A DNA stretch of 32,513 bases from Thermoflexus hugenholtzii JAD2. Lineage in GTDB: Bacteria; Chloroflexota; Dehalococcoidia; UBA2979. Under the pieces are notes generated by a model. It was not told where the DNA came from, made no database searches, and saw nothing but the letters and a program-made list of their open reading frames with translations. Both the position numbers and the translations under genes were made by a program. Positions 1,998-4,392 of this stretch are shown here, one piece after another. Position 1 is the first letter of the stretch. Every line of letters starts with the position of its first letter. Location of the stretch: positions 1-32,513 of the forward strand of contig CAMDBZ010000001.1 in NCBI GenBank assembly GCA_945889565.1, in the 5' to 3' direction.

Positions 1998-3478
1998 CCA
2001 CCAACGCTACTGCCACCACGTACCGCCCATCGCTCGCGGAAGTGCGCGGCCTCGTGGGGCGGGGCAACGTGGTGCCGATCTACCGCGAGGTGCGCGCGGA
2101 CCTCGAGACGCCGGTGTCGGCGTTCCTGAAGGTCGCGCGCGGGGAGTACTCGTTCCTGCTCGAGTCGGTGGAGGGCGGGGAGCGGATGGGGCGCTACTCG
2201 TTCATCGGCACGGAGCCGTACCGCGTGCTGGTGGGCCGCCACGACGGCGGCGACCCGCTGGCCGAGGTCGAGCGCGAGCTGGCGCAATTCAGCTCCGTGC
2301 CGGCGTCGGGGTTGCCGCGCTTCCACGGCGGGGCGGTGGGGTACGTGGGTTACGAGGCGGTGCGCCACTTCGAGCCGCGCGTGGGGGCGCCGGAGCGCGA
2401 TGCGCTGGGCGTGCCGGAGTCCTGGCTGATGTTCGCGGATGCGCTGCTGGTGTTCGACCATGTGCTGCACACGATCAAGGTGGTGGCGCACGTGCGGCTG
2501 GACGGCGACATCGACGCGGCGTACGAGCGCGCGTGCTGGCAGATCGATCAGCTCGTCGGGCGGCTCGCGACGCCGCTGGCGGCGCTGCCGTACACGCCGT
2601 GCGCGGGGCCAACGGGGCGCGCGGTGCAATCGAACTGGACGCAGGAGGCGTTCATCGGCGCGGTGGAGCGCACGCAGCAGTACATCCGCGCGGGCGACAG
2701 CATCCAGGCGGTGATCTCGCAGCGCTTCTCGCGCGAGACGGGCGCGCACCCGTTCGAGGTGTACCGCTCGCTGCGCGCGATCAATCCGTCGCCGTACATG
2801 TACTACCTGCAGTTCGGCGACACGTACGTGGTGGGCGCGTCGCCGGAGCTGCTGGTGAAGGTGGAAGAGGGCAAGGTGGAGGTGCACCCGATCGCGGGGA
2901 CGCGCCCGCGCGGGGCGACGCCGCTGGAGGATGCGCGGCTGGGCGAGGAGCTGCGCCATGACCCGAAGGAGCTGGCGGAGCACGTGATGCTGCTGGACCT
3001 CGGGCGGAACGACGTCGGCCGGGTGTCGGCGCCGGGGTCCGTGGAGGTGACGCAGCAGTTCGACATCGAGCAGTACTCGCACGTGATGCACCTCGTGAGC
3101 CACGTGCAGGGGCGGCTGCGCGACGGCGTGAGTCCGTACGCGGCGCTGCGCTCGGCGTTTCCGGCAGGCACGGTGTCGGGCGCGCCGAAGATTCGCGCGA
3201 TGGAGATCGTCGCGGAGCTGGAGCCCGATCAGCGCGGGCCGTATGCCGGGGGCGTCGGCTTCTTCGATCTCTCGGGCAACGTCGAGATGTGCATCACGAT
3301 CCGCACGCTGGTGATGAAGGACGGCTGGGCGCACGTGCAGGCGGGCGCGGGCATCGTGTACGACTCGGTGCCGCAGCGGGAGTTCGAGGAGACGCAGCAC
3401 AAGGCGCGGGCGCTGCTCGCGGCGATCGACGACGCGGAGCGCGCCGAGGGCGCGCCGAGCGGGAGCCTGGGCTACTGA
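1994..3478 (+). CDS. trpE: anthranilate synthase component I
   Basis: ATG 1994 is preceded by AAGGAG (1981-1986). Motifs present: LLESVEGGERMGRYSF, LLDLGRNDVGRV, GAPKIRAMEIV, RGPYAGGVGFF. The ORF-track start at 1691 would run through the T-box terminator and is rejected. Confidence 0.95.
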   Translation: MTTNATATTYRPSLAEVRGLVGRGNVVPIYREVRADLETPVSAFLKVARGEYSFLLESVEGGERMGRYSFIGTEPYRVLVGRHDGGDPLAEVERELAQFSSVPASGLPRFHGGAVGYVGYEAVRHFEPRVGAPERDALGVPESWLMFADALLVFDHVLHTIKVVAHVRLDGDIDAAYERACWQIDQLVGRLATPLAALPYTPCAGPTGRAVQSNWTQEAFIGAVERTQQYIRAGDSIQAVISQRFSRETGAHPFEVYRSLRAINPSPYMYYLQFGDTYVVGASPELLVKVEEGKVEVHPIAGTRPRGATPLEDARLGEELRHDPKELAEHVMLLDLGRNDVGRVSAPGSVEVTQQFDIEQYSHVMHLVSHVQGRLRDGVSPYAALRSAFPAGTVSGAPKIRAMEIVAELEPDQRGPYAGGVGFFDLSGNVEMCITIRTLVMKDGWAHVQAGAGIVYDSVPQREFEETQHKARALLAAIDDAERAEGAPSGSLGY

Positions 3479-4392
3479 TGACGTCGACGCCTGCGGCGGC
3501 GGTGGTGCGGCGCGCGGTGGTGGCGTCCGGCGTGCGCGTGCGGCGCGAGGACGGCGCGGTGCTGCTCGTGCGCGCGCCCGGCGGGGACGCGTGGTCGTTG
3601 CCGTGCCGCGCGGTGCCGGAGGACGAGACCGCCGAGGACGCGGCGCTGCGGCTGCTGCGCGAGGGGCTGCAGCTGCGCGTGGGTGCGATCCTGTTCGCGA
3701 CGACGCTGTCGATCGCGGACGCGGCGACCGACCTCGCGGTGAACGTGTTCGACGCGATTGGCTGGGACGGGGAGCCGCGCTACCGCGACGAGGAGTTCGC
3801 GGACGCGGGCTGGCTGCAGCCGGCGCGGCTCGGCAACGTCGATGTGCTGCCGGAGGTGACGGCGTGGCTGCGCAGCGAGATCGTGCAGCCGCCGTCCGAG
3901 GCGGACCGGGCGGCGATCGCTGCGGAGCTGGTGGAGGCGCGGCGCGCGCTGCTGGCGGCGTTCGACGCGATCGCGCCGCGCGCGCGCGCCACGACACTGG
4001 ACGGCGCGTGGGCGCCGTGCGACGTGCTGGAGCACGCGACGGCCGTCGAGCGGTACGAGCTGGCGGAGGCGCTGCGGCTCGCGGAGGAGCCGGGGGGCGC
4101 GTGGTGGCCGTGGAACGAGCGGCAAGGTGAGCTTGCGCGAGCGCAGCACCCACGGCCCGACCCGGACGAGGCGCGCGCGCGCGGCGACGCGTCGCACACA
4201 GAGACGCTGCGGGCGCTGCAGTGGCTGCCGCCGGAGCAGCTGGCGGTGCGCGGTACGGACCCCGCGGGCAGCACGGTGCTGCTGGAGGCGCGGCTGCGCG
4301 CGATCGCCGCGCACGACCTCGAGCATGCGGCGCAGCTGCGGGCGATGCGGGTGCGCGCGGAAGGAGACGCTGATGTTGCTGCTGATCGATAA
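3478..4392 (+). CDS. hypothetical two-domain protein: N-terminal Nudix-like fold with incomplete Nudix box, C-terminal DinB-like four-helix-bundle region
   Basis: ATG 3478 overlaps the trpE stop (TGATG), and the 3' end overlaps trpG by 20 nt. The N-terminus [50 protein letters not shown] follows the Nudix pattern, but the REUXEE glutamates are largely missing. The C-terminus has W..CDVLEH and [12 protein letters not shown], which resemble DinB-superfamily His motifs. This is a domain call by eye only. Confidence 0.65.

Follow-up and report, generated by a model that had tools for sequence, protein, structure and literature searches.

A degenerate Nudix-like domain fused to DinB_2 between trpE and trpG of Thermoflexus hugenholtzii, and its relatives after trpE in other Dehalococcoidia

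A two-domain gene between trpE and trpG

The genes for the two subunits of anthranilate synthase, trpE and trpG, are normally adjacent or fused, and tryptophan biosynthesis is among the best-studied pathways. The window analyzed here, a stretch of 32,513 nucleotides (nt) from Thermoflexus hugenholtzii JAD2 (Chloroflexota; Dehalococcoidia; UBA2979; contig CAMDBZ010000001.1 of assembly GCA_945889565.1), carries a tryptophan operon in which a further gene of 304 amino acids (aa), called X below, lies between the two. An earlier reading of the letters made without database searches (the sequence-only reading) had placed an open reading frame (ORF) there, starting on the trpE stop codon and running 20 nt into trpG. 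Direct reading of the sequence gave the same coordinates and junctions (Table 1), and each protein string cited in that reading was found in the translation of X. The A of the X start codon is the last base of the trpE TGA, and X and trpG share 20 nt (4373–4392). The operon is extended after trpG by trpD, trpC and trpF (4966–7611), with overlapping junctions.

Table 1. Features of the trp locus around gene X (window coordinates)
Feature	Position	Strand	Basis
trpE (anthranilate synthase component I)	1994–3478	+	Pfam Chorismate_bind 305 bits, Anth_synt_I_N 98.8 bits; LLES and NPSPYM motifs; stop TGA 3476–3478
TGATG stop/start overlap of trpE and X	3476–3480	+	Direct sequence reading
Gene X, 304 aa, Nudix-like domain fused to DinB_2	3478–4392	+	ATG 3478–3480, TAA 4390–4392
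MutT-type Nudix-fold domain, X residues 14–122	3517–3843	+	PF00293
Degenerate Nudix box, X residues 44–66	3607–3675	+	Profile alignment to 4dyw and 3ees
DinB_2 (DinB/YfiT-like) four-helix bundle, X residues 151–287	3928–4338	+	PF12867, AlphaFold2, Foldseek
His186 codon CAC, first His of the predicted metal triad, in DVLEH (residues 182–186)	4033–4035	+	Sequence
H279-D-L-E-H283, second and third His of the predicted triad (HxxxH..Q motif; HDLEHAAQL, residues 279–287)	4312–4326	+	Sequence
AAGGAG, Shine-Dalgarno-like, for trpG, within the X 3' end	4361–4366	+	Sequence
trpG (glutamine amidotransferase subunit)	4373–4966	+	Pfam GATase 199.6 bits; ATG at 4373
trpD	4966–5991	+	Pfam Glycos_transf_3
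trpC	5984–6844	+	Pfam IGPS
trpF	6841–7611	+	Pfam PRAI

Long open frames arise by chance at a third-position GC content (GC3) of ~93%, and the risk that X is a chance ORF was therefore tested directly. The GC3 of X is 0.92, and its codon-position GC pattern is that of the neighboring genes. A profile search found X in 93 of the 99 genomes of its order, in all 48 high-quality genomes and in 20 of 21 genera; several members of the order have near-complete single-contig genomes. The frame, whose conservation in relatives the sequence-only reading had named as a check, is intact in 93 of 99 genomes. A few profile matches cross a single stop codon; at the two such loci that were read (L014 and L020) this is the stop of X itself, overrun by the match. 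The ratio of nonsynonymous to synonymous substitution rates (dN/dS) was 0.34, 0.16 and 0.24 for X in three within-genus pairs, and 0.08, 0.05 and 0.11 for TrpE. The codon pattern, the substitution ratios and the wide distribution establish X as a genuine gene under purifying selection. Its proteins are publicly annotated only as ‘NUDIX domain-containing protein’, ‘DinB family protein’ or ‘hypothetical protein’.

The gene order is also conserved. All 23 relatives whose locus was read show the order trpE-X-trpG-trpD(-trpC); the recurrence of this synteny, which the sequence-only reading had named as a check, holds at each of these loci. The trpE-X junction ranges from −4 nt (overlap) to +36 nt in these relatives, with a 1-nt overlap in nine of them. 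In 22 of 24 loci, the window included, the X-trpG junction measures −20 to +56 nt. In the closest relative, a member of the same genus (L002, genome G001), a gap of 251 nt separates the X stop from the trpG start, compared with the 20-nt overlap in the window.

Alternative starts were seen for two genes. The X frame is also open 5' to a GTG at 3289, inside trpE (3289–3477), and the trpE frame is open 5' to an ATG at 1691 (1691–1993). The starts at 3478 and 1994 are backed by the N-termini of homologues. Alternative frames commonly stay open in very GC-rich DNA, and the two extensions are of this kind. They account for wrongly called public proteins, among them P0038, a 509-aa protein with Chorismate_bind and NUDIX domains, which was considered as a TrpE-X fusion and rejected: its middle is Arg/Pro-rich and out of frame, the mark of a frameshift or gene-calling artefact. 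An apparent X-TrpG fusion at L014 was also discarded, as direct translation ends X at ...TARQD followed by a stop codon, with the trpG ATG 30 nt later.

Folds and catalytic residues of the two halves

The N-terminal half of X adopts a Nudix fold, as the sequence-only reading had supposed. Residues 14–122 match Pfam PF00293 (NUDIX) with 38.4 bits against a cut-off of 21.1, and profile matches in the PDB include 4dyw (E = 1.2e-9) and 3ees, both about 1e-9. An AlphaFold2 model of full-length X, built on 30 homologues, reached a mean predicted local distance difference test score (pLDDT) of 91.5 and a predicted template modeling score (pTM) of 0.65. Searched with Foldseek, this model found RppH, MutT and NUDT15 as best PDB matches over its N-terminal 125–140 residues, with a probability of 1.0 for RppH and MutT. 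The target-normalized template modeling score (TM) of this half was 0.69–0.80 to RppH and MutT, and 0.7–0.8 when NUDT15 is included.

The residues required for Nudix hydrolysis are lost. When X is aligned by profile with Nudix enzymes of known structure, its box reads E50-x7-R58-L59-L60-R61-E62-G63. The sequence-only reading was thus right that the box is degenerate, which holds in either register, and misplaced it as E53-x7-R61-E62. Against the consensus GX5EX7REUXEEXGU, X carries G to R, RE to RL, EE to EG and G to Q, and residues 44–66 thereby lack the RE glutamate and the second of the EE glutamates of a catalytically competent box. Columns were counted over 43 distinct sequences of the X family. 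The position of the RE glutamate is L, V, M, A or I in all 43, and that of the second EE glutamate is variable; the E62 position holds D or E in 40 and E50 is kept in 36. The MutT counterparts of the two lost glutamates are Glu53 and Glu57, the general base and a metal ligand, respectively. In published MutT mutagenesis, changing either such glutamate is reported to make the turnover number (kcat) roughly four to five orders of magnitude lower. Given the loss of both, canonical pyrophosphohydrolysis by X appears very unlikely from its residues.

Other positions of the Nudix-like half are strictly kept. W39, P42, E53, F73, N89, F91, W96, G98 and W112 are invariant in 43/43 sequences and map, by alignment to MutT, to strands flanking the substrate site. 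X therefore resembles the MutT-type hydrolases (E. coli MutT, 3a6t; Bdellovibrio RppH, 3ees; Burkholderia MutT, 4dyw) in fold, and it has in common with MutT the W-x-G-E-P strand motif. It differs from them in lacking the RE glutamate, the second EE glutamate and both box glycines, and in having a fused C-terminal domain and a fixed place in a trp operon. Nudix folds that serve recognition rather than hydrolysis are known from the MutY C-terminal domain, the NrtR effector domain and CFIm25. Some X relatives give weak matches to Pfam NUDIX_4, the MutY type. Between X and these non-hydrolytic domains no sequence kinship beyond the shared fold was found.

The C-terminal half is a DinB/YfiT-type four-helix bundle. 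Residues 151–287 match PF12867 (DinB_2) with 29.0 bits against a cut-off of 24.8, and PDB profile matches are 2rd9 (E = 5.5e-5) and 1rxq (E = 0.002). The C-terminal 165 residues modeled alone with AlphaFold2 (140–304) gave a pLDDT of 95.7 and a pTM of 0.89, and Foldseek placed this model closest to YfiT (1rxq; TM 0.76, E = 4e-6), followed by 8f5v, 2nsf, 2yqy, 3dka and 6iz2. The histidine motifs that the sequence-only reading had likened to the DinB superfamily correspond to the DinB metal triad, H186/H279/H283, intact in X with HxxxHxxQ spacing. Across the family H186 is kept in 31/43, H279 in 35/43, H283 in 33/43 and the full triad in 31/43 sequences. R155, E191 and Y193 are the residues of this half that are invariant in all 43.

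The bundle aligns with B. subtilis YfiT (1rxq), M. tuberculosis mycothiol S-transferase (MST; 8f5v) and mycothiol-dependent maleylpyruvate isomerase (MDMPI; 2nsf) at TM 0.65–0.76, with only 13–19% sequence identity. Unlike YfiT, MST and MDMPI, the bundle of X is fused behind a Nudix-like domain, and its triad is absent in 12 of the 43 relatives. We considered X as a bacillithiol S-transferase of the YfiT/BstA type. The bacillithiol synthesis protein BshC (PF10079) was not found in the T. hugenholtzii genome or in five near-complete genomes of the order, with B. subtilis, Thermus and Deinococcus positive as controls, and the assignment was rejected. Canonical Nudix-DinB_2 fusions also exist, for example P0062, an IMG ‘nucleoside triphosphatase’, in which the two Pfam domains of X occur in identical order. 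P0062, however, has an intact box (GGGIEPGETIEAALRRETREELGL) and domain scores of 84 and 74 bits, far above those of X, and its match to the X profile reaches only E = 1.7e-16. Full-length X is rare: among 1.84 billion representatives, only ~20 clusters at 50% identity match both domains.

Two further observations concern the build of the protein. In L022 and L023 (genomes G005 and G024, genus g5) a Pro/Ala-rich insert of roughly 30–50 residues separates the Nudix-like half from the DinB half, which fits two domains that fold on their own and are connected by a flexible linker. A stand-alone DinB_2 paralogue is encoded elsewhere in the T. hugenholtzii genome (contig C5, 19934–20365; open frame of ~189 aa); against the DinB half of the X profile it scores E = 4e-13.

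The Nudix-like module after trpE across Dehalococcoidia

Outside the order, the Nudix-like half recurs with other partners. Its profile matches 89 of 301 Dehalococcoidia genomes. At all 14 loci fetched from outside the order trpE lies directly upstream of the Nudix-like match, and at nine of them trpG is also present in the fetched downstream flank. Sixteen further loci divided equally into eight linked to trp genes (families f11, f16, f20, f27, f31 and f53) and eight unlinked (f5, f6, f26, f35 and f38). Families f74 and f53 did not contribute to the profile, and their linkage to trpE is thus an independent confirmation. In all, about ten Dehalococcoidia families have a degenerate Nudix-like gene after trpE. 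In a phylum sample of 301 genomes, matches outside the class were canonical Nudix proteins and not beside trpE. A strict Nudix-box pattern was found in none of 39 trp-linked domains, compared with 10 of 12 unlinked relatives.

The trp-embedded proteins of the other families contain a homologous degenerate domain in the same slot as X, immediately downstream of trpE and ahead of trpG, and differ from X in having a C-terminal domain other than DinB_2, or none. Partner domains were assigned by Pfam or NCBIfam. Stand-alone Nudix-like proteins of 140–146 aa occur in f7 and f20 (L082, L084 and L111). Fusions to a class I S-adenosylmethionine (SAM) methyltransferase are found in f20, f53 and f74 (L083, L089, L093 and L109; P0044 group), and fusions to one or two CMD/PcaC-like domains in f16 and f23 (L085, L088 and L092), with a second small Nudix-like gene upstream in f16. 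In f11 and f31 the partner is a CPT-like P-loop kinase (L041, L106, L108 and L115; P0091). Among the copies read, DinB_2 is the partner in the window's order only. The partner domain of the module has been exchanged at least four times.

The trees bear on the age of this arrangement. In the domain tree the Nudix halves of X form a clade (support 100/98), whose sister group (99/97) consists of methyltransferase-fused and stand-alone forms. In the TrpE tree, 18 rows without the module form one well-supported clade, and every family that has the module falls outside it. A single ancient gain of the module followed by scattered losses would be compatible with this topology.

Sixty further genomes of the class were sampled and 29 outgroup trpE loci fetched, of which 27 were read after trpE. 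Seven of these hold a Nudix-like gene after trpE and five hold short-chain dehydrogenase (SDR) genes. The position after trpE is a variable cargo site in Dehalococcoidia. The SDR cargo comprises one or two genes, at L045, L047, L048, L053 and L055. At L065 (838–1071; genome G135, f38) the ORF after trpE is a 78-aa stand-alone Lrp/AsnC ligand-binding (RAM) domain.

A relative with an intact box was seen near a different trp-like gene. At L104 (2504–4487; genome G280, f26) a 140-aa protein whose box reads RELAEEAGL is encoded immediately 3' of a 497-aa gene that looks like a TrpB paralogue (33% identical to the TrpB of the window) and not near trpE; in the domain tree this relative groups with the trp-linked CMD-fused forms (91/76). 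The pairing of an intact Nudix gene with a trpB2-like gene was examined as a recurrent linkage and dropped, as it was not found in 12 other f26 genomes and stands as a single case.

Other features of the T. hugenholtzii operon were also recorded. A strong terminator-like hairpin of 13 base pairs followed by a T-rich tail lies upstream of trpE at 1766–1795. A Trp T-box leader is possible there, although Rfam did not establish one: upstream of trpE nothing reached the gathering score of 93, and two collinear fragments of ~16 bits (1438–1569 and 1753–1781) were obtained. Downstream of trpB and within the co-directional gene array, an ORF for a multi-pass membrane protein of 246 aa (8823–9563) seems to be a second non-trp insert in the operon.

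A proposed binding role and its alternatives

We propose, with a probability of about 0.5, that X does not hydrolyze but acts in connection with the anthranilate synthase step as a module that binds a ligand or serves as an adaptor, and whose effector domains are interchangeable. X would be made together with anthranilate synthase and would be the order's version of an accessory module that follows trpE. The constant part would be the MutT-type Nudix fold which, its hydrolytic residues lost, may work as a binding module. What it binds could be either TrpE:TrpG or a small molecule connected with the chorismate/anthranilate step. The effector would be the variable part: the DinB/YfiT bundle with its three-histidine metal site in the order of X, and elsewhere a SAM methyltransferase, CMD domains, a P-loop kinase, or nothing. 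The lack of hydrolysis, the binding of a ligand or protein and the tie to anthranilate synthesis are the parts of this proposal that we infer.

A stronger version of this proposal is tentative, and we regard it as clearly less probable than not. Here the module would be a third component, so far unrecognized, that acts at the anthranilate synthase step in much of Dehalococcoidia, as an adaptor or sensor binding TrpE:TrpG, a molecule derived from chorismate or anthranilate, or an inhibitor. The bound partner would be coupled to the DinB/YfiT bundle here and to a methyltransferase, CMD domain or kinase elsewhere. Evidence for a third subunit consists of gene order and the translational coupling of X with both neighbors. 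A strict third-subunit model has against it that no fusion to TrpE or TrpG was found among the proteins inspected, that the module is missing in many lineages and that the feedback motifs of TrpE are unchanged.

Several observations weigh against the proposed binding role. One genus of the order, with genomes of 0.7–1.2 Mb, lacks X and has trpE followed directly by trpG. In the TrpE tree this genus nests within the order, beside an X-carrying genus, which indicates secondary loss; tryptophan synthesis in itself can thus do without X. In 14 of the 27 outgroup loci trpG likewise follows trpE within 175 nt. The 140-column domain tree did not resolve monophyly of all trp-linked Nudix-like domains. 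No fusion of the module to TrpE or TrpG was seen among the multi-domain proteins inspected from the best 150 matches in the 1.84 billion representatives, leaving physical association unsupported. The LLES and NPSPYM feedback motifs of TrpE are identical in lineages with and without the module. X evolves at three to four times the rate of TrpE, and the chemistries of the partner domains are unrelated, which argues against one shared reaction. Twelve of the 43 family members have lost the His triad, so the DinB metal site is not universally required; in ten of them two or three positions are lost together. Judged from these residues, the predicted site is probably used in most lineages, yet it is not what the whole family conserves. 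The unchanged feedback motifs also led us to reject the module as a substitute for feedback control of TrpE.

The main rival is that X is a self-contained small-molecule enzyme, which we consider possible but less probable than a binding role. The DinB/YfiT metal site would catalyze a transfer, isomerization or hydrolysis on a substrate recognized by the Nudix-like half. Its task could be detoxification or metabolite repair around chorismate, anthranilate and tryptophan, or removal of a pathway inhibitor, and the other families would reach the same end by methylation, phosphorylation or CMD-type chemistry. The intact triad of X and of 31/43 family members speaks for such an activity, and its nearest structures (YfiT, MST and MDMPI) are enzymes. 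All other partners likewise come from small-molecule enzyme families (UbiG/UbiE/ArsM-like methyltransferases, PcaC-like CMD proteins and CPT-like kinases), and the lack of TrpE or TrpG fusions among the proteins inspected fits an enzyme that acts by itself. However, stand-alone Nudix-like forms free of any enzyme domain fill the same slot in f7 and f20, and the 12 triad-less copies of X keep R155, E191 and Y193 together with the invariant residues of the Nudix half. A reaction of the YfiT/BstA type would be left without its cofactor in the six genomes of the order that lack BshC. Four unrelated chemistries for one substrate are also not parsimonious.

A decaying-passenger explanation, in which an old gene for a Nudix-DinB enzyme would have become caught in a tightly packed operon and be kept mainly because its removal would upset the translational coupling of trpE and trpG, with no function of its own linked to tryptophan, is improbable in our assessment. 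Such decay would account for a dN/dS three to four times that of TrpE, for a between-genus amino-acid identity of 35–47% compared with 72–82% for TrpE, and for the loss of the Nudix catalytic residues in the family and of the His triad in 28% of its sequences. The clean loss of X in the genus with streamlined genomes also fits. A dN/dS well below 1 in every pair argues the other way, as do the twelve residues invariant in 43/43 sequences and the frame intact in 48/48 high-quality genomes of the order. The Nudix-like half, moreover, stays beside trpE in about ten families while its partners change, which calls for continued selection on both module and position.

The sequence-only reading had listed, next to a non-catalytic ligand-binding regulator, which remains the best fit, an activity on phosphoribosyl pyrophosphate (PRPP), phosphoribosyl-anthranilate or nucleotides. 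That X tunes pathway flux as an active hydrolase of such compounds through an unusual box is the least credible explanation and can be largely set aside, since, although the fold is intact and E62 (D or E in 40/43) and E50 (36/43) are kept, the counterpart of MutT Glu53 is L, V, M, A or I and that of Glu57 variable family-wide, both box glycines are gone, and the box pattern is failed by 39/39 trp-linked copies and kept by 10/12 unlinked relatives.

Full-text literature searches turned up no account of Nudix or DinB genes within trp operons. The conserved slot, the coupling and the exchange of partners point to a function that is under selection and linked to the pathway, and that the literature searched does not describe. 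X itself offers a clear example of a Nudix fold put to another use with its hydrolytic residues gone. Should the module be a lineage-specific detoxification enzyme, its interest would be modest. If it is true that the module modulates anthranilate synthase, a textbook pathway gains a component. And if the third-component reading is true, the tryptophan pathway of these bacteria would hold a protein function outside the textbook scheme.

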